Below, one piece after another: positions 1 through 7,277 of a DNA stretch of 7,277 nucleotides (positions within the stretch are counted from its first letter, which is position 1; each line of letters begins with the position of its first letter). The notes beneath the pieces are model-generated. The model saw only the letters and a list, made by a program, of their open reading frames with translations. It ran no database searches and was not told the origin of the DNA. A program made the translations under genes and the position numbers. Origin of the DNA: a virus (Duplodnaviria; Heunggongvirae; Uroviricota; Caudoviricetes); the IMG/VR virus record IMGVR_UViG_2645727775_000011, positions 1-7,277 of that record; one strand, 5' to 3'.

Positions 1-25
1 TTTATCTAGCTATAAAGCACATCTA

Positions 26-217
26 TTGGATATGCATTTTCAATACATTGATAATTTAACGGAAGAACCAATACCAGTTGAAGATGATCTTATTTCCTAT
101 GCTTTAGACACAGGAAGTTTTTACCATCCAGAAACTGGCGAATTGGTTGATAATTTTAGCCAGTATCTTTATCCATACTTTACTCCTTCGAGTCTTTTGG
201 AGAGTCTGCATGAGTGA
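26..217 (+). CDS. Small acidic ORF, possibly the 3' end of a longer gene running off the window start; translationally coupled to the downstream nuclease-like gene
   Basis: ORF track 26..217 begins at a TTG. The same frame has no stop between position 2 and 25, and the first in-frame ATG (32) has no Shine-Dalgarno, so a 5'-truncated longer gene is likely. Its stop TGA (215-217) overlaps the ATG (210-212) of the next gene. The product is acidic and aromatic-rich. Region is AT-rich. Confidence 0.4.
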   Translation: MDMHFQYIDNLTEEPIPVEDDLISYALDTGSFYHPETGELVDNFSQYLYPYFTPSSLLESLHE

Positions 218-851
218 TGTAAACATCTGTACTGCAGACCTTCAATCATTAATTAGAATGGATCCTGAATTTAGGGGAATGGTTCAAAGAAAATTAGCTG
301 CAGACAAAAATATTTTTGTAAAGCAACTCTATGAAGATTTAGACGACGCTATTCAGAATTTAGAAAATGACAAACACTTCTATCAAGATGCTAAGTGGGG
401 AGAGGACGAGCTAACAGCGTCGATCAAAAATTTCCTGAAAGGTAGGTTTTATGATGTTGAACATGATACTCAACATGGCGGTCACGTTGATTTATTAGTT
501 AAACATCAATTCGGAAAATTCGAATGGATCGGTGAAGCAAAATTATGGAGAGGCCCCAAATCTATTCATAATGGCTGGATTCAGCTAACCGAACGTTACG
601 GCACGGGTACGTCACGTGACGATCATGGAGGAATTCTAATTTATATAAAGTCTGACAAATCAGCAGTAAAATTCAATGAATGGAAAGAATTTTTCTCTAC
701 GACCGTTTCGGACGCAGAAATTGAAGCGGAAGGCTCTCCCCTCCGCTTTAAGAGTATCACAAAGCATCCAGCAACAGCGCTTCCATATCATGTAAGACAC
801 ATGGGAGTATCCTTATACCATTACACTGGTAAAAAAACCGCTGACTCTTAA
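210..851 (+). CDS. Putative PD-(D/E)xK-fold nuclease (about 213 aa): restriction-endonuclease-like, toxin or defence effector candidate
   Basis: ATG at 210 is preceded by GGAG (199-202) at 7 nt; the track's TTG start at 147 is rejected. The translation contains GGHVDLLV followed 16 residues later by EWIGEAK, matching the hhD...ExK core of PD-(D/E)xK nucleases, with a preceding Glu-rich helix. AT-rich composition. No database search was possible. Confidence 0.55.
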   Translation: MSDVNICTADLQSLIRMDPEFRGMVQRKLAADKNIFVKQLYEDLDDAIQNLENDKHFYQDAKWGEDELTASIKNFLKGRFYDVEHDTQHGGHVDLLVKHQFGKFEWIGEAKLWRGPKSIHNGWIQLTERYGTGTSRDDHGGILIYIKSDKSAVKFNEWKEFFSTTVSDAEIEAEGSPLRFKSITKHPATALPYHVRHMGVSLYHYTGKKTADS

Positions 852-1369
852 CTGGTAATTGCTATATATCCAGTCAAAAAACCTAAGGCTTTTTGCAATC
901 TTTTACGAATTGTTCCATCTGAACATCCTTGTTGCTTTGCAATAGCACGAAGAGATAAACCAATCACGAAATGAGCAACAATTAACTCATATTCTTGTTG
1001 CTTATATCTTTCTAACCTAAGGATACTAATGTCAATAATTCGCCCTTCATCATTGCTGCACTGACGACGTGATTTTTTACCATGAGGAACAACATTTTTA
1101 TATTTATCAGCTATTTCCTGCCAATCAATAGAACTATTACCAGCCACAACCCAAGCCCCCCAATCGTCTAAAATCTCACATATATCAACATTACTATCCA
1201 TCTGTTTTTTATTTTCTATTTTGAAATAACCAAGCAGCATTCTAGCCATTGTTGTTATTTCTATACTTGTAACTGACTCATAAGCATGAGGAGAAACAAT
1301 TCTCTCATCACTTAATGCCCAATCACTAAGGTTTGCTATTTCCAACAATCGTTCTTTAGTTATTCCCAT
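848..1369 (-). CDS. Phage antitermination protein Q-like (about 173 aa) with C-terminal sigma-70 region-4-like HTH
   Basis: ATG at 1369 is preceded by GGAG (1378..1375) at 5 nt; the track's GTG at 1381 is probably not the start. Motifs WGAW, RRQCSND and CSDGTIRKRLQKALG recall the Q antiterminator family (QuuD-like), from memory. It is the last gene of the minus-strand early operon. Its stop overlaps the stop of the convergent plus-strand gene (848-851). Confidence 0.55.
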   Translation of the reverse strand: MGITKERLLEIANLSDWALSDERIVSPHAYESVTSIEITTMARMLLGYFKIENKKQMDSNVDICEILDDWGAWVVAGNSSIDWQEIADKYKNVVPHGKKSRRQCSNDEGRIIDISILRLERYKQQEYELIVAHFVIGLSLRAIAKQQGCSDGTIRKRLQKALGFLTGYIAITS

Positions 1370-1380
1370 TATTATCTCCA

Positions 1381-1396
1381 CCGCCCTTTCGGGCGG
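1381..1396. promoter_or_regulatory. GC-only stem-loop (CCGCCC-TTTC-GGGCGG) directly upstream of the Q-like RBS
   Basis: Perfect 6-bp G/C stem with a 4-nt loop. On the minus-strand transcript it ends 3 nt before the Q-like Shine-Dalgarno. No strong U-tract follows on either strand. Confidence 0.35.
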
Positions 1397-1501
1397 CCTC
1401 CTGATGATTTGAGGGTGCAGGAATCCCTCCGGTTAAGGATTTAATAAAAATCGTTTCTGATTTAAATCTTCAGTATTTAGTTGTTAGTCGGTTTATAGCC
1501 T

Positions 1502-1813
1502 TTATGCTTCGACCTTATTTCTCAGCCATACACAAACCGGGCCATCTTCGGTGTCATGTATTGAACCAATAAACCATCCATTGCCCTCTGGTCGTTCCGG
1601 TTCCCATGCAGAAATATCAGCATCACACGCATCAAGGTCAGCACATCCTTCATCTCTGAAGCAGAGGACGTATTGAAGATTATTTTCCTCCATCCAGGCG
1701 TTAAACTCTTCCGTTGAAATATATTCCCGACCGTCACAGAATTTTTCATATTCAGGATGCGTCCAGCAGCCATATTCATCACGTACTACTGGTATTTCTT
1801 TAATTTCATTCAT
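1502..1813 (-). CDS. Hypothetical phage protein (103 aa), acidic with 6 Cys
   Basis: ATG at 1813 is preceded by GGGAG at 7 nt. Clean ORF; the overlapping alternate-frame ORF 1522..1782 is rejected. It occupies the nin-like position between the replication gene and Q. No recognisable family. Confidence 0.6.
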   Translation of the reverse strand: MNEIKEIPVVRDEYGCWTHPEYEKFCDGREYISTEEFNAWMEENNLQYVLCFRDEGCADLDACDADISAWEPERPEGNGWFIGSIHDTEDGPVCVWLRNKVEA

Positions 1814-2056
1814 TTCTGTTCTCCCACGTTTTCAGACTTTCACCACAGAACGGACAAAATGAAACCCGAACTGGTAATTTAGAAAATTCACCGGAACGCA
1901 ACATCACAAAATCAGGACCGCGAGTTAAACTCTCATTTCAGATTTTGTATATCAGCAGACCTTTTCGCATCGTGTATTCAGCATCACGCTCAAGGGACTT
2001 TGCCAGTGCTGCACATGGTTCTATCTTGTTGCCATTAACCTGGCATTTTGATTCAC

Positions 2057-2479
2057 TCACCGCACCACCTCCTCAAAATTCCCCTGATAAAACGCCAGTA
2101 CGCGCTGCATAGCTTCGCTCTTCCGGCACTCGCGACAGATTATGTTCTGACGCCTGTCGTAGCGACGTATTTCTCCGTCAGGTAATGACCAGATAAGGTC
2201 CGGATCAACCGCAGATGGTTTCTTCAGCTTTGCCCTTGAGAGCTTTTTACGGGCATTTTGCCAGTCCTTACGCGCCTGTTCAGACGGGAATAACCCGTAA
2301 CCAGAGTTGTATACATCGCCACTGGCAACCAGCTCTCTGGCCAGAACGCTCATCAGATATCTTGTTGCCCCAGTTTTAGTTTCCAGTTGTCGTAACGTCT
2401 CGCGCCCACTCTGGCGTACGAGTTCAACAACCTGCCCTTTAATTTTTTCCCGCTCTTCTTGTGTAAAAACTTTTGCCAC
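2057..2479 (-). CDS. Hypothetical basic protein (140 aa) with possible winged-helix region and C-terminal CxxC
   Basis: GTG start at 2479 is preceded by a perfect AGGAGG at 5 nt. It lies immediately downstream of the initiator gene in the same operon. The K/R-rich sequence suggests nucleic-acid binding. No recognisable family. Confidence 0.6.
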   Translation of the reverse strand: MAKVFTQEEREKIKGQVVELVRQSGRETLRQLETKTGATRYLMSVLARELVASGDVYNSGYGLFPSEQARKDWQNARKKLSRAKLKKPSAVDPDLIWSLPDGEIRRYDRRQNIICRECRKSEAMQRVLAFYQGNFEEVVR

Positions 2480-2519
2480 AAGCCCTCCTGAAAATTACCT
2501 CATGACCAGAAATTAACAC

Positions 2520-3452
2520 TTACCCCCTGAAGCCCGGCGGAATTTCAGTGTCCGGTTCAGAAATGTGATTCACGCAACGCTGCGCAGGCGAACGCCCCAG
2601 GCGGATAACCAGTTCATCCCATTTTTCCCGGAGTTTTGCCGGACTCATGATGTTTTTTACCCAGAACGAATCCCGCTGGAGACGCCCAAACATTTCACAA
2701 ATTTGTCTGTGAGTTCTGCCATCCAGCATCCGCATTGTGCGAACGTCATTGGCCCATGCTGTCCAGTTGGGTTCTTTCGGTCTAGTGATCTCGCCATCAT
2801 AGCTGGCCGCCTGCTCGTAAAGACTCACGATTCGTCCCCAGATCCACTGTGCGCACACCAAATCTTCCTGACTTCCCCACTGGCGTTTTTTCGCACTGAA
2901 CACAACCGCGTCAGGGTGTCGGGTTAAAAAATCCTGTTCAGCCGTCTGCGGGTCCGGTTGCGAAGCGTCCGGACAAGAAGATCTTTTATCTGACGGATCA
3001 GGTTTTAATACTGACGGATCGGGGTCAATCATCGCCCCCCTAATCGGCAGTTTTTTATCAACAGTTGATCCATCAAAATTTGACGGGTCAACTGTTAACG
3101 GGTCATTTTTTGCCGGGCTAATTTTTCTTTTCGGTTTATATGACTCACGCGCCGCCGCCGCAGCTGCTTCGAGTTTTTCCACATTAAGCCGATAGATATT
3201 GCTTACATTACGCCCACCGACCTTACGCTCTTCCTTCGTCAGCCAGCCCTCTTTCGCCAGTTCTGCAATAGCCGATTTCACTGTGGATTCACTTCTTGCA
3301 CCGATCTGACGCCGGATAGTTTCAATGGCAGGCCATGACACGCCCTCGTCATTGCTGTAGTCTGCAAGACGGGCCATAACCGCCACCCTGGATAAGATCA
3401 TGCCGGTGAAGGCGCACCCTTCCCAGACAAGACCATGAAGCTTGCTGCTCAT
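2520..3452 (-). CDS. Replication initiation protein (lambda O-like architecture: N-terminal HTH, P/D/S-rich linker, C-terminal domain)
   Basis: ATG at 3452 (MSSKLHGLVW...) is preceded by GGGGG; the track's GTG at 3467 has no Shine-Dalgarno. The N-terminus has a winged-HTH-like segment (SWPAIETIRRQIGARSESTVKSAIAELAKEGWL). The middle is a low-complexity Pro/Asp/Ser linker encoded by repeated DNA. Its position after the cro-like and ydaT-like genes fits a lambdoid replication module. Confidence 0.7.
   Translation of the reverse strand: MSSKLHGLVWEGCAFTGMILSRVAVMARLADYSNDEGVSWPAIETIRRQIGARSESTVKSAIAELAKEGWLTKEERKVGGRNVSNIYRLNVEKLEAAAAAARESYKPKRKISPAKNDPLTVDPSNFDGSTVDKKLPIRGAMIDPDPSVLKPDPSDKRSSCPDASQPDPQTAEQDFLTRHPDAVVFSAKKRQWGSQEDLVCAQWIWGRIVSLYEQAASYDGEITRPKEPNWTAWANDVRTMRMLDGRTHRQICEMFGRLQRDSFWVKNIMSPAKLREKWDELVIRLGRSPAQRCVNHISEPDTEIPPGFRG
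2990..3160. repeat. Iteron-like direct repeats plus adjacent AT-rich tract inside the initiator gene: putative origin of replication
   Basis: Motif TGACGG(A/G)TCA occurs at 2991-3000, 3012-3020 and 3081-3090, with TAACGGGTCA at 3096-3105 and a near-inverted copy TGATCCATCA at 3066-3075. A T-rich stretch follows (3105-3145). This parallels lambda ori lying within O. Confidence 0.4.
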
Positions 3453-3474
3453 AAAACCCCCGAACACCGTGCTT

Positions 3475-3900
3475 TTAGTGCATCACCACAGCATTCCCTG
3501 CCGGGCCGCCGCGATTCATCTGGTCATACAAAACAACCGCTGACGCAACAAAATCATCGACATCCTTCACCAGCCGATCCCTCCGTTCGACGATCTCACG
3601 GTAATATTCAGAACTGTGGCTGCGCATACGGGCCACCAGCAAAGGCGGCATCGCCTTTTCGATCGCCGGTAACAGAGCCTGCATTTTTTCAACAGCATCA
3701 GGGGTGTCTTTATCCAGCCAACGGAAAATTTTCTGGGTATTACGGGCCAGGGCTTCCGGATGGCTGTCGTCATACAGTTCCGGGAACGTCATTCCCAGCT
3801 CGAAATACGCTTTGGTAATTTTCGCAGCCGGCACTTTTTCGCCGTCCGGATGCGCCCAGACATTCATCGCCATGCGGATGTGTTCATGCTTGATTTTCAT
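3475..3900 (-). CDS. ydaT: YdaT-like protein (141 aa) of Rac-type prophages
   Basis: ATG at 3900 is preceded by AGGAG at 8 nt. The N-terminus MKIKHEHI matches my recollection of E. coli YdaT. It overlaps the 3' end of the upstream cro-like gene by 17 nt, as in ydaS-ydaT pairs. Confidence 0.65.
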   Translation of the reverse strand: MKIKHEHIRMAMNVWAHPDGEKVPAAKITKAYFELGMTFPELYDDSHPEALARNTQKIFRWLDKDTPDAVEKMQALLPAIEKAMPPLLVARMRSHSSEYYREIVERRDRLVKDVDDFVASAVVLYDQMNRGGPAGNAVVMH

Positions 3901-4165
3901 GAATCAAGCTCCTAGAAAGTGGTTGTGTTAACGTTTTGGTATCTTCCAGCTCGGGCCAAATATTCATCCAATCAAAAGGCCTTAGTTGCTGACGTGTAAC
4001 TTCACCATTACTGGCTCGCTCAATAAGGACACATAACGATGCCCCTAACACTTGACCTTTACTCAATGCCTTTCTTAGATAACCGATGCTGGTACCACAC
4101 TCGCATGCAAACATACGCTGTTCATCTGACGAAAGAGAATTGAGAAATATTCTTAATTCTTCCAT
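3884..4165 (-). CDS. ydaS: Cro-like transcriptional regulator, YdaS family (93 aa)
   Basis: ATG at 4165 is preceded by GGAG at 5 nt. The segment CVLIERASNGEVTRQQLRPFDW resembles the YdaS/Cro-like family as recalled. It is divergent from the CI-like gene across a 100-bp operator region. Confidence 0.65.
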   Translation of the reverse strand: MEELRIFLNSLSSDEQRMFACECGTSIGYLRKALSKGQVLGASLCVLIERASNGEVTRQQLRPFDWMNIWPELEDTKTLTQPLSRSLIHENQA

Positions 4166-4174
4166 AGCTACTCC

Positions 4175-4272
4175 TTAGTAAACACAGCAAAGAATACCCG
4201 CAGGTAAACAAAAGACAATACCCACAGGTTGTTTACCTTGCGGTAATCGCATCTATTATTTACCTATGGACA
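4175..4272. promoter_or_regulatory. Divergent promoter-operator region (oR-like) with TACC-N4-GGTA palindromes
   Basis: Perfect sites are TACCCGCAGGTA (4195-4206) and TACCTTGCGGTA (4234-4245); weaker copies are TACCCACAGGTT (4219-4230) and TACCTATGGACA (4261-4272), the last overlapping the repressor ATG. A candidate promoter for the repressor has -35 TTTACC (4232-4237) and -10 TATTAT (4254-4259), with no Shine-Dalgarno before ATG 4266, suggesting a leaderless mRNA as for lambda cI. Confidence 0.5.
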
Positions 4273-4685
4273 AATATGAATTTAGACGACAGCAACTCAT
4301 CAAAATTCGTGATGAGAAATGCGATGGTAAAGCGGTTAACGTGGCCAGAAAGATCGGGCGCGAGCCTTCTTATGTATCAAGAATGTTGTACCCAGAGGGG
4401 AAAAAGGGAAAAAAACGGATCGCTGATGATATGGTGGAGATTATCGAAGAGTCCTTTGGGTTACCCCGGGGATGGATGGATGGTATCGTTTCATCATCAA
4501 CGAACACAGCCTCCAGTTATGAAACAAGGGTTCTAACGCCACGACAACGTATTTTTTTAGATCTCTTAGACGAACTGCCAGAAAGTGAAGCGGATAAATT
4601 ATTAAAAACTCTTGAAGAGAAAAAACAGTATTACAATATGATCTACGAAGAAATCCGTAAAAAGAAAGCACAAAACGCATCATAG
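4266..4685 (+). CDS. CI-like prophage repressor (139 aa; DicA/RacR-like, XRE-type HTH)
   Basis: It is divergent from the cro-like gene. An HTH lies near residues 20-40 (AVNVARKIGREPSYVSRM). The C-terminal LPESEADKLL segment recalls DicA-type repressors. The alternate-frame ORF 4276..4536 is rejected. Confidence 0.7.
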   Translation: MDKYEFRRQQLIKIRDEKCDGKAVNVARKIGREPSYVSRMLYPEGKKGKKRIADDMVEIIEESFGLPRGWMDGIVSSSTNTASSYETRVLTPRQRIFLDLLDELPESEADKLLKTLEEKKQYYNMIYEEIRKKKAQNAS

Positions 4686-4727
4686 CTCACCAAACAACTA
4701 GTCACCAGTTAAGACACCGCAAAAATT

Positions 4728-4764
4728 TACCCATAGGTATTTACTTTTTAAATACCTATGGGTA
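4728..4764. promoter_or_regulatory. Perfect 16-bp inverted repeat built from two TACC-N4-GGTA sites: oL-like operator and/or intrinsic terminator downstream of the repressor gene
   Basis: Positions 4728-4743 pair perfectly with 4749-4764 around a 5-nt loop, and a T-rich run follows (4765-4775). The arms are TACCCATAGGTA and TACCTATGGGTA, the same motif as in the cro-cI intergenic region. A possible promoter overlaps it: -35 TTTACC (4726-4731) and -10 TTAAAT (4748-4753). Confidence 0.45.
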
Positions 4765-4950
4765 TCCTTCTTTTCATACCAACCCACCCCGCCCCACAGA
4801 ATGCAGGGCAATACTTCGAGTTACCAGGCAGTGGTCAGGGGTTAAGTAGCCAGCCCGAGGCGTAAGAACATGACGGCAGGGTTCAACTTTAATAACTATG
4901 CAGCAGGTTTTTGTTCCGCTACCCCGGCGTTAAGGGGAAATGAGGTCAAC

Positions 4951-5103
4951 ATGGATATGCTCAATCTTGGCAACAACGAATCTCTGGTATGTGGCGTGTT
5001 CCCCAACCAGGACGGCACGTTTACCGCGATGACGTATACCAGAAGCAAAACGTTTAAAACTGAAGCTGGCGCGCGTCGCTGGTTAACCAGAAACACTGAC
5101 TGA
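4951..5103 (+). CDS. ydfA: YdfA-like small protein (50 aa), first gene of the dicB-type operon
   Basis: ATG at 4951 is preceded by GAGG (4942-4945) at 5 nt; the track's upstream ATG at 4870 is less likely. The sequence MDMLNLGNNESLVCGVFPNQDGTFTAMTYT matches my recollection of Qin YdfA. Length is close to the 51 aa of YdfA. Confidence 0.55.
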   Translation: MDMLNLGNNESLVCGVFPNQDGTFTAMTYTRSKTFKTEAGARRWLTRNTD

Positions 5104-5114
5104 TGAGGTTGACG

Positions 5115-5516
5115 ATGGAATTTAAAGATTTACCAGTACCATTCCAGGAAATGGCATCGAATGTGGTTCGCTCTCAACTGGCGACTCTTGACCTGAGTAC
5201 CGTAGAAAAAGAAACCATCGATACTATATCCGGTAACGTGCGTCGTGCCTTTATAGGTCTGTATGAAGAGAAGCGCCTATTCGGCGGACAGAATTCGCCT
5301 GAAAACAAGAATCAAGCAAATGATGAGAAGCTGAAACACATTATCGCCTTACTTTTGGAAGACGCAAAACGTTTACAGCAACTGGAACCAAATGCAGGCA
5401 CAGAGGCCCGCATTTGGATTGCCATGAAATCACTCAAATGTGAAAGCAGTGATTATTTCAAAACAACAATTAAAACTACTCAACTTTCGGGAGAGCTACT
5501 GAAGAAATTGCCATAA
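5115..5516 (+). CDS. Hypothetical protein (133 aa) at the ydfB/ydfC position of the dicB operon
   Basis: ATG at 5115 is preceded by GAGG (5105-5108) at 6 nt; the track's start at 5103 overlaps the upstream stop. The stop of the ydfA-like gene (5101-5103) lies just upstream, indicating an operon. The 3' end overlaps the convergent antisense ORF by 41 nt. Confidence 0.55.
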   Translation: MEFKDLPVPFQEMASNVVRSQLATLDLSTVEKETIDTISGNVRRAFIGLYEEKRLFGGQNSPENKNQANDEKLKHIIALLLEDAKRLQQLEPNAGTEARIWIAMKSLKCESSDYFKTTIKTTQLSGELLKKLP

Positions 5517-5754
5517 GAGCATGGTCTTTCTCTTGTTCTGCAAGATGAGCATTAATACCTGGTATGGTTTTTTCAAATTTATCTATCTGTTGAATAACAA
5601 CTTCGCGGTATACGTTTGTTTTTGTACCACCAAGCGCAGCCGTTAATGCAGAAAGCATATTTAGTATCATATCAGTGCGATATGAAAGAATCCTGATAGC
5701 TTCATCTTGTTTTTCAATAATAGATTGCAGGGCCTCAATTTGCTTTTTATCCAT
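5476..5754 (-). CDS. Hypothetical AT-rich antisense ORF (92 aa), predicted helical, inside the dicB-type operon
   Basis: ATG at 5754 is preceded by a perfect AGGAGG (5765..5760) at 5 nt. The clean 93-codon ORF sits in an AT-rich block between GC-richer flanks. The track's upstream start at 5793 is rejected. No recognisable family. Confidence 0.5.
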   Translation of the reverse strand: MDKKQIEALQSIIEKQDEAIRILSYRTDMILNMLSALTAALGGTKTNVYREVVIQQIDKFEKTIPGINAHLAEQEKDHALMAISSVALPKVE

Positions 5755-6085
5755 TTCACCCTCCTGAGGGTTGGTAATTAAGGAGTTCTCCACGGGTCAG
5801 GTGGAGTGCGTGCGCCGGACACGGGTGAACATCCGGCACTGACAGTTTACTGAAAGGATATGTCCCTGAAAAGTCAGGGCATAACGCGAAAGCGCACGGC
5901 AAAATTGGTCTCTCTGTACGGTGTCGTTAAATTTAGTTCGACCGTGCGCTTCCGGTTGTGGCACTCCGCGAAATGGCGCGGCGGTAAGTATGGCGGGGTT
6001 ATTCCTTCCCCGTTGAGGACACCGGGTTGTCAGGTTGACCATACGCTTAAGCGACAACCCCGCTGCAACGCCCTCTGTTATCAAT

Positions 6086-6140
6086 TTTCTGGTGACGTTT
6101 GGCGGTATCAGTTTTACTCCGTGACTGCTCTGCCGCCGTT
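6086..6140 (+). ncRNA. dicF: DicF small RNA (ftsZ-targeting sRNA of Qin-type prophages)
   Basis: TTTCTGGTGACGTTTGGCGGTATCAGTTTTACTCCGTGACTGCTCTGCCGCC followed by a T-run (6139-6143) matches my recollection of E. coli DicF nearly exactly. It lies about 170 nt upstream of dicB, as in the K-12 operon. Confidence 0.75.
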
Positions 6141-6312
6141 TTTAAAGTGAATTTTGTGATGCGGTGAATGCGGCTGAGCGCACGCGGAACAGTTAAAACC
6201 AAAAACAGTGTTATGGGTGGATTCTCTGTATCCGGCGTTAATTGTTAACTGGTTAACGTCACCTGGAGGCACCAGGCACCACATCACAAAATTCATTGTT
6301 GAGGACGCGATA

Positions 6313-6501
6313 ATGGAAACGTTATTACCAAACGTTAATACGTCTGAAGGTTGTTTTGAAATTGGTGTCACTATCAGTAACCCTGTATTTACTGAAGATG
6401 CCATTAACAAGAGAAAACACGAACGGGAGCTATTAAATAAAATATGCATTCTTTCAATGCTGGCCCGTTTACGTCCGATACAAAAAGGATGCTGGCAATG
6501 A
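6313..6501 (+). CDS. dicB: Cell division inhibitor DicB (62 aa)
   Basis: ATG at 6313 is preceded by GAGGA at 7 nt. The product METLLPNVNTSEGCFEIGVTISNPVFTEDAINKRK... matches recalled DicB sequence and length. It follows DicF. The track's extended start at 6208 is rejected. Confidence 0.8.
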   Translation: METLLPNVNTSEGCFEIGVTISNPVFTEDAINKRKHERELLNKICILSMLARLRPIQKGCWQ

Positions 6502-6689
6502 ATACAGCATTTGCACTTGTTCTGACAGTTTTTCTTGTTTCCGGAGAGCCAGTTGATATTGCAGTCAGTGTTCACAGGACAATGCAGGAGTGTGTGACTG
6601 CAGCAACCGAACAGAAAATTCCCGGTAACTGTTACCCGGTCGATAAAGTTATTCACCAGGATAATAACGAAATCCCGGCAGGTCTTTAA
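6498..6689 (+). CDS. ydfD: YdfD-like small lysis/membrane protein (63 aa)
   Basis: ATG at 6498 overlaps the dicB stop (ATGA) and is preceded by AAGGA. It has an N-terminal hydrophobic segment (AFALVLTVFLVSG) and two Cys. Length and position match ydfD downstream of dicB. Confidence 0.6.
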   Translation: MNTAFALVLTVFLVSGEPVDIAVSVHRTMQECVTAATEQKIPGNCYPVDKVIHQDNNEIPAGL

Positions 6690-6781
6690 AACAGTTCCGT
6701 AATAAACATCCGGTTTCATTCTTATATGCCAGCAATGGCAGGGATTTGTTCACCCTTAAATCTGTAATGAGGTAAAACAAA

Positions 6782-7277
6782 ATGAGTAAAGTCTTTATTT
6801 GCGCTGCTATTCCTGATGAACAGGCCATAAAAGAAGATAGCGCTGTTGCGGTGGCCACTGCCATTGAAGCTGGTGATGAGCGTCGCGCACGCGCAAAATT
6901 TCATTGGCAATTTCTGGAGCAATTCCCTGCAGCTCAGGACTGCGCTTATAAATTTATTGTCTGTGAGGATAAACCCGGCATACCCCGCCCTGCCCTCGAT
7001 TCCTGGGATGCTGAATATATGCAGGAAAACCGCTGGGATGAGGAGTCTGCTTCCTTTGTCCCGGTTGAGACTGAATCAGATCCGATGAACGTCACTTTTG
7101 ACAAGCTGGCCCCTGAAGTACCGAACGCTGTCATGGTTAAGTTCGACACATGTGAAAACATCACCGTTGATATGGTTATTAGCGCACAGGAATTGTTGCA
7201 GGAAGACATGGCAACATTCGACGGACATATCGTTGAAGCGTTGATGAAAATGCCAGAAGTTAACGCCATGTATCCGG
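6782..7277 (+). CDS. ydfE: Acidic hypothetical protein, YdfE-like; 3' end runs off the window (at least 165 aa)
   Basis: ATG at 6782 is preceded by TGAGG (6768-6772). The frame stays open to the window end and was not in the ORF track because it lacks a stop. The product (MSKVFICAAIPDEQ...) is Asp/Glu-rich. Position after ydfD matches ydfE in Qin. Confidence 0.5.
   Translation, partial: MSKVFICAAIPDEQAIKEDSAVAVATAIEAGDERRARAKFHWQFLEQFPAAQDCAYKFIVCEDKPGIPRPALDSWDAEYMQENRWDEESASFVPVETESDPMNVTFDKLAPEVPNAVMVKFDTCENITVDMVISAQELLQEDMATFDGHIVEALMKMPEVNAMYP

Follow-up and report, generated by a model that had tools for sequence, protein, structure and literature searches.

Positions 1–851 of the DNA stretch analysed here, 7,277 nt of a Caudoviricetes record in IMG/VR (IMGVR_UViG_2645727775_000011, positions 1–7,277; hereafter the window), very probably hold the downstream half of a prophage-borne, three-gene nuclease operon of the DS-21 family, which acts against phages. 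The segment comprises the last one-and-a-half of three plus-strand genes, called A, B and C below, of which C encodes the predicted nuclease effector. Sequence comparison places the cassette, as a diverged member, in an already published and validated defence family; it is not a new kind of system. An earlier reading of the window from its letters alone (the original prediction) had proposed a defence or toxin module that could be assigned to no known defence family. The module type is borne out by the anti-phage activity shown for DS-21, and the family is now named.

The relationship was found by looking for peptide motifs of A and C in the supplementary tables of the DefensePredictor study (PMC13092281). 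DS-21 is the three-gene unit "TOXO" of an ECOR strain (NZ_QOXJ01000032.1, 7805–9963) (DeWeirdt et al., Science 2026, PMC13092281), where it is tabulated as "Predicted novel defense gene", defensive TRUE, named DS-21 and replicated TRUE. All three proteins align end to end with their DS-21 counterparts by BLASTP: A with WP_001532221.1 (51% identity, E 3e-141), B with WP_021552536.1 (54%, E 1e-48) and C with WP_001557682.1 (60%, E 6e-93). Moreover, the gene order is the same, the protein lengths are nearly so (365/140/211 aa in DS-21 and 363/142/213 aa here), and the two alleles share the same 8-nt overlap of B and C (B 8433–8855 and C 7805–8440 in NZ_QOXJ01000032.1). Both alleles lie in lambdoid prophages of E. 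coli and converge on a PF06530 Q-family gene that overlaps the 3' end of C. On the other hand, the E2348/69 allele, to which the window belongs as described below, is diverged, and the regions upstream of A are unrelated between the alleles; the left neighbour is hokD with a second late-gene regulatory block here and a holin for the DS-21 allele.

The functional evidence comes from the published allele. DS-21 was challenged with 24 phages and protected MG1655 carrying the cloned cassette alone, with no other gene of the donor prophage (PMC13092281). The log10 reduction of plating was 4.48 (about 10^4.5-fold) for Bas1 and 2.0 (about 10^2-fold) for Bas11, and only smaller plaques were recorded for Bas67 (0.82), Bas3 (0.52), T3 (0.30) and Bas9 (0.18) (PMC13092281). 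DS-21 is not named in the main text of that paper, and a full-text search found no later paper on it. Similarly, full-text literature searches returned nothing relevant for the RefSeq accessions, for PDC-S54 (a candidate family mentioned below) or for RdgC-like, and the main text of a domain-centric discovery paper (NAR, 2026) does not mention RdgC, RexA, three-gene, PDDEXK, E2348 or BamHI.

Over positions 1–1400 the window matches the chromosome of strain E2348/69 (E. coli O127:H6) with 100% identity, and no more than 14 of 5426 complete E. coli genomes carry the segment at an identity of at least 97%. Extension to the left in E2348/69 recovered the full genes B and A and showed three coupled genes in the order A-B-C. 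Coordinates outside the window are given for this locus (L001), whose position 12001 is window position 1. Gene A (L001 10701–11792, plus strand, 363 aa, WP_000893384.1) lies outside the window. Gene B (L001 11789–12217, plus strand, 142 aa, WP_000748514.1) overlaps A by 4 nt (ATGA) and starts 212 nt left of the window, which holds its 3' part at 1–217 (the last 71 codons and the stop); its frame is open to the window edge, as had been noticed, and ends with TGA at 215–217. Gene C (L001 12210–12851, window 210–851, plus strand) encodes a PD-(D/E)xK nuclease of 213 aa. The coupling junction spans 198–217 on the plus strand, with GGAG at 198–201, the ATG of C at 210–212 and the TGA of B, so that ATGAGTGA at 210–217 is the 8-nt overlap of B and C. 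The overlapping pair of plus-strand genes was thus described correctly in the original prediction, but the cassette has three genes and not two, since the 363-aa A lies upstream.

RefSeq starts C later, at window 258 (WP_001380433.1, 197 aa). However, the homologues of C with 206–213 aa, including the published DS-21 protein, conserve both the N-terminal 16 residues and the overlap with B, which makes ATG 210 the better start. The three products differ in charge, with a pI of 8.8 for the basic A and of 4.67 (net charge −12) for the acidic B, while C is close to neutrality. The upstream product had been seen to be acidic from its C-terminal part, and a small acidic protein, complete at 142 aa, is indeed what stands there, whereas the methyltransferase or NTPase that had been offered as alternatives is not. 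A simple promoter scan upstream of A gave no plus-strand match to the sigma-70 consensus. About 75 nt 5' of A, within an AT-rich region, a perfect 10-bp palindrome, TGCGTACGCA, lies at L001 10619–10628 and is kept in the 97%-identical STEC367 allele; it could be an operator.

Family databases were of little help with any of the three proteins. Pfam and NCBIfam gave no usable match for A, B or C, and a sequence search of the PDB returned no match for A or C and mere noise for B, though each protein belongs to a PHROG family of unknown function. In PADLOC-DB 2.0, A and B had no match and C had only a weak one, of its nuclease motif to the candidate PDC-S54 (E 0.0016). The published HHpred results for DS-21 list a weak SAP/HeH motif at residues 16–48 of the large protein (0.64), and DUF5939 (0.94) and a winged helix (0.8) for the small one (PMC13092281). 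The DUF5939 assignment was not reproduced for B by hmmscan.

The nuclease is the best defined of the three components. In a word-indexed search, C had homologues in 45 clusters (28–78% identity) that span Enterobacterales, Vibrio, Photobacterium, Shewanella and metagenomes. Homologues of A in the same kind of search formed 32 clusters, all from Enterobacterales, and an exhaustive profile search for A gave about 498 clusters (at 50% identity) with E of 0.001 or below, 290 of them at 1e-10 or below. With such numbers, neither C nor A can be a chance open reading frame. The two stretches of C that had been singled out as a nuclease-like core, GGHVDLLV and EWIGEAK, are residues 90–97 and 105–111, and an alignment of 41 C sequences has E65, G91, H92, D94, W106, G108, E109, A110, K111, Q125 and Y130 invariant. 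The predicted active-site codons lie on the plus strand within window 402–542 (E65 at 402–404, D94 at 489–491, E109 at 534–536 and K111 at 540–542).

The AlphaFold2 model of C (pLDDT 91.8, pTM 0.88) has E65 on a helix (65–78), D94 on a strand (91–98) and E109 and K111 on a strand (105–112), behind an N-terminal four-helix region (residues 8–58). In this model the order of elements is that of the canonical PD-(D/E)xK core, with a predicted active site. The closest solved folds are those of the Type II enzymes BamHI, OkrAI, BstYI and BglII, followed by McrC. Thus, the model gives C a restriction-endonuclease fold like that of BamHI, with the E65/D94/E109/K111 site intact, in agreement with the nuclease core that had been recognised from the letters. 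Nuclease activity, metal-dependent as in the PD-(D/E)xK superfamily, is predicted from sequence and model. A family scan of the 41 C homologues gave only scattered sub-threshold matches (PDDEXK_9 in three). Some distant homologues (P0037, P0040 and P0045) carry lysine/alanine-rich C-terminal tails (alignment columns 225–286) that match the histone H1-like family HC2 (PF07382, E 9e-6); the E. coli C has no such tail, but the tails of its relatives argue for DNA as the substrate.

With this fold, the cassette might be thought of as a classical restriction enzyme, either Type II-like with accessory subunits or modification-dependent (Type IV-like), in which A would recognise DNA. The fold neighbours of C are consistent with this, as is the published HHpred assignment of the DS-21 nuclease to the DpnII-MboI restriction-enzyme family (0.96) (PMC13092281). 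Nevertheless, we consider it quite improbable. There is no methyltransferase in or beside the cassette at E2348/69 or at any other locus examined, and MG1655 tolerates the DS-21 operon, so that this is not an unprotected sequence-specific cutter. As for the modification-dependent variant, family scans of the three proteins revealed no McrB-type GTPase or ATPase partner. The sensitive phages Bas1 and Bas11, T1-like Drexlerviridae of the BASEL collection, are not known to have hypermodified DNA.

The small subunit B has homologues in Shewanella and Acinetobacter, and a scan of nine of its homologues gave only scattered sub-threshold matches. The order A-B-C is kept in Shewanella, in Acinetobacter and at five metagenomic loci, in phages and islands. 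In Shewanella baltica the three genes lie beside a resolvase and a DUF6538 integrase (B homology, E 4e-21); in Acinetobacter they lie on a contig that is chromosomal (C, E 4e-29; B, E 3e-7); and in a metagenomic phage they lie between Mor and a gene with a pRha domain. The four further metagenomic loci are variously next to ParE/Phd, to BrnT/BrnA or to an integrase and a resolvase, and A is split into two open reading frames at one of them. A two-gene variant was also met on a metagenomic contig beside flagellar genes (L006 6743–8630), in which a protein of 423 aa precedes the C homologue. Its C-terminal 120 residues are a B domain (hhalign probability 95.6, E 1e-8); it was considered as an A-B fusion, but its first 300 residues are unrelated to A. 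This gene fusion suggests that B may link the nuclease physically to an exchangeable upstream module and that it behaves like a portable adaptor domain.

A toxin-antitoxin addiction module would account for part of this arrangement, with C as toxin, B as antitoxin and A as regulator, and would stabilise the prophage and not act against phages. A small acidic protein encoded upstream of the nuclease and coupled to it is what such a module would have, and B is acidic at all four loci compared (pI 4.6–5.4); moreover, the neighbours are often toxin-antitoxin loci (hokD, ParE/Phd, BrnT/BrnA and HipA). We regard this as unlikely, because the phage-specific protection by DS-21 fits a toxin-antitoxin-like trigger and not a purely stabilising role, the B domain at the C-terminus of the 423-aa protein fits an adaptor better than a labile antitoxin, and A, the conserved and largest component, would have no role in a simple two-part scheme. 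Addiction of this type and defence are not mutually exclusive.

The large subunit A, mostly of 335–390 aa among the family members listed, is harder to place by sequence. It had no match in Pfam at E up to 10, RdgC (PF04381) included, and 41 diverse members gave no consistent Pfam or PADLOC family, with scattered sub-threshold matches to Cas2 in two or three of them. In hhalign, the A family had a probability of 0.3% against E. coli RdgC and 0.2% against lambda RexA. The AlphaFold2 model of the monomer (pLDDT 83.4), on the other hand, has an N-terminal bundle of four helices (residues 2–61) followed by alpha/beta domains, and in Foldseek two chains of 2OWL (RdgC, a recombination-associated ring protein of E. 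coli that binds DNA) were the only matches with E below 0.001 (best E 4.3e-5, probability 1.00, 353 columns). The TM-scores of this match are low, since the domains are arranged differently. Iml3, CENP-L and Chl4 also matched A by structure; RexA was not among the top structural matches. Thus, A is modelled as an RdgC-like fold behind an N-terminal helical bundle.

The crystal structure of lambda RexA has RdgC, Iml3 and Chl4 as its reported structural relatives, and RexA and its homologues are dimeric proteins that bind DNA without sequence specificity (PMC11077077). A is basic at three of the four loci compared, the exception being Acinetobacter (pI 6.35), which is only suggestive of a dimer that binds double-stranded DNA. 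Conservation in A is highest in CLRxDxYHHGGE (residues 267–278), which continues into SPILTKxKLGKIWD. This motif overlaps the only low-confidence segment of the model (263–275; the two together cover 263–278, L001 about 11487–11534), as would suit a loop that takes on order when it meets a partner or DNA.

RdgC modulates RecA and recombination (PMC11077077), and it could be argued that the cassette serves the life cycle of the prophage itself, as an RdgC-like modulator of RecA together with a nuclease for recombination or for degradation of host DNA. The cassette does lie among phage genes for recombination and late regulation (nin-type RusA, DUF968), and A, B and C are all in PHROG families. 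However, this is very improbable. The cassette runs opposite to the early and late operons of the phage and has its own base composition; it is absent from most related prophages, one of which has another cassette at the same site; it is also found in non-phage settings, namely integrase/resolvase islands and the chromosomal Acinetobacter locus; and the cloned DS-21 cassette protects its host without the rest of the donor prophage.

To return to the DS-21-type defence operon, the following scheme may be drawn. A, probably dimeric like RdgC and lambda RexA, would bind DNA and detect a feature of phage DNA as it infects or replicates. B would serve as an adaptor, holding the nuclease to the sensor A and possibly restraining it. 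C, once licensed, would cleave DNA, with the result that the phage genome is destroyed or the infected cell killed. The scheme makes use of no NTPase. Since there is no methyltransferase either, discrimination between self and non-self would depend on the structure of the DNA or on a trigger that the phage makes, and not on modification. A further, tentative possibility, which we hold to be less likely than not to be right, is that DS-21-type systems form a distinct class, in which a clamp of RdgC/RexA fold (A) reads the structure of phage DNA and licenses C via B without any NTPase, methyltransferase or second messenger, while B and C make up a portable effector unit, as the fusion in the metagenomic two-gene variant suggests. 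Structural features such as free ends or intermediates of replication or recombination are candidates for what A would read.

Some points weigh against this account of the cassette. We infer, and do not observe, the dimerisation and DNA binding of A, the contacts of B, the cleavage by C, the trigger and the choice between direct restriction and abortive infection. The CLRxDxYHHGGE motif, the most conserved of A, falls in the least confident part of its model. The DefensePredictor paper gives no mechanism for DS-21 and lists no mutants of its components (PMC13092281). Finally, at 51–60% identity, the activity and phage range of the E2348/69 allele may differ from those of DS-21.

The surroundings support the view that the cassette is an acquired, AT-rich accessory module, as the original prediction had it. 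The GC content is 0.378 for window 1–851 and 0.49–0.52 for the replication module (1502–3900), which confirms the AT-richness noted earlier. The convergent Q-family gene is AT-rich like the cassette (GC 0.345), and the low-GC island therefore consists of the cassette plus this gene (L001 about 10600–13400, about 2.8 kb). The E2348/69 region is a lambdoid prophage integrated beside ompW. In the orientation of the window, its order left of the cassette is lysis genes, an insertion sequence (IS) element, two tRNAs, a Q gene, RusA, DUF968 and hokD; the three plus-strand hypothetical genes A-B-C and a small minus-strand gene annotated as "antiterminator Q family" occupy the middle; and to the right of the latter are DUF977, an O-like replication gene, ydaT, a cro/cI-like pair, dicB, an exonuclease, xis and int. 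The whole cassette is transcribed against the early and late operons.

In a related prophage, of strain 504838, the site between hokD and the small Q gene is occupied by a different two-gene cassette on the plus strand, a DUF6731 protein of 304 aa with a protein of 159 aa (L009 4522–5931). The presence of different cassettes at one site indicates that the position between hokD and the small Q gene is a variable cargo site. Together with the AT-richness and with the neighbours at other loci (integrases, resolvases and toxin-antitoxin pairs), it places the A-B-C cassette in an accessory, mobile context. The DUF6731 protein was considered as a relative of A, but its profile comparison with the A family was negative; the pair may be another cargo or defence candidate.

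The small Q-family gene (window 848–1381, L001 12848–13381, minus strand; PF06530, Pfam E 9.4e-32) encodes 177 aa from a GTG start, or 173 aa in RefSeq. It is a linked neighbour and not a component of the system. Its end at 848–850 and the TAA of C at 849–851 share TTAA at 848–851, so the overlap of stops that had been pointed out is real. The placement at a junction of Q and lysis genes, which had also been proposed, does not hold for E2348/69, where hokD is on the left and the lysis genes are about 8 kb away, but it does hold elsewhere for the DS-21 allele, which in other E. coli lambdoid prophages lies between a holin and a 128-aa PF06530 Q gene. In these (L017 7001–7998, and L018–L020) the 3' ends of C and of the convergent Q overlap by 25 nt, and the 128-aa Q is 38% identical to the 177-aa one of the window. 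That the tail-to-tail overlap with Q is kept in both alleles, at about 40–60% divergence, argues for a long-standing linkage of cassette and Q. The same prophages (L017–L020) have a terminator-like hairpin on the minus strand (5332–5311) between the start of A and the holin, a place at which one would expect a tR'-like terminator with a late promoter.

A second Q gene, of 229 aa, lies in the E2348/69 prophage at L001 7645–8334, beside the tRNAs and the lysis genes. The two Q genes, with the second block of late regulation, suggest a mosaic prophage made of two late-regulation modules, in which the small Q gene may have come along with the cassette as a relic. Farther to the right, the window has 30 bp fewer than NC_011601.1 from position 3093 (a repeat-copy difference), and so is not strictly identical to the reference E2348/69 record; it accordingly derives either from a very near relative or from a different assembly of this strain. 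The difference sits in a run of GACGGGTCAAC-type direct repeats (window about 3060–3130) inside the O-like replication gene (window 2520–3467, minus strand). These repeats are probably origin iterons within the replication-initiator gene, of which the window has one copy fewer. In addition, a small hypothetical gene of RefSeq with an internal stop (pseudogene) occupies window 1806–2060 on the minus strand, between the genes for a 103-aa protein and DUF977.

What these results add is modest. They point to an operon of E2348/69, a reference strain for enteropathogenic E. coli, as a probable anti-phage system, all three proteins of which RefSeq calls hypothetical, and they give DS-21 some structural leads, namely the RdgC fold for A, the adaptor-like domain of B and the tail-to-tail linkage with Q in both E. 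coli prophage alleles. The leads are directly testable; the kinds of defence system known are unchanged by them.

Finally, the parts of the cassette resemble those of several known systems, each with clear differences. C shares a structural group with the Type II restriction endonucleases BamHI, OkrAI, BstYI and BglII at a sequence identity of 8–14%. Unlike these enzymes, it has no partner methyltransferase, carries the extra N-terminal four-helix region (residues 8–58) and has its gene beside those of two non-enzymatic partners. Over most of its length, A has the fold of RdgC (PDB 2OWL), and the structural relatives of RexA (RdgC, Iml3 and Chl4) are also those of A. Lambda RexAB offers a precedent in which a protein of this fold is the DNA-binding component of a prophage-encoded exclusion system. 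On the other hand, A has no detectable sequence relationship to RdgC or RexA and adds the N-terminal helical bundle, and it is paired with a soluble nuclease and an adaptor, whereas RexA is paired with RexB. The cassette is also like Lamassu (LmuA, the SMC-like ATPase LmuB, and LmuC) in having three components, being nuclease-based and lacking a methyltransferase, and the DS-21 nuclease has a remote HHblits match to the PD-(D/E)xK effector LmuA (94.7, coverage 0.55) (PMC13092281). In contrast to Lamassu, however, it has no SMC/ABC ATPase, its A and B match no PADLOC model, and its C is a stand-alone nuclease of 213 aa.

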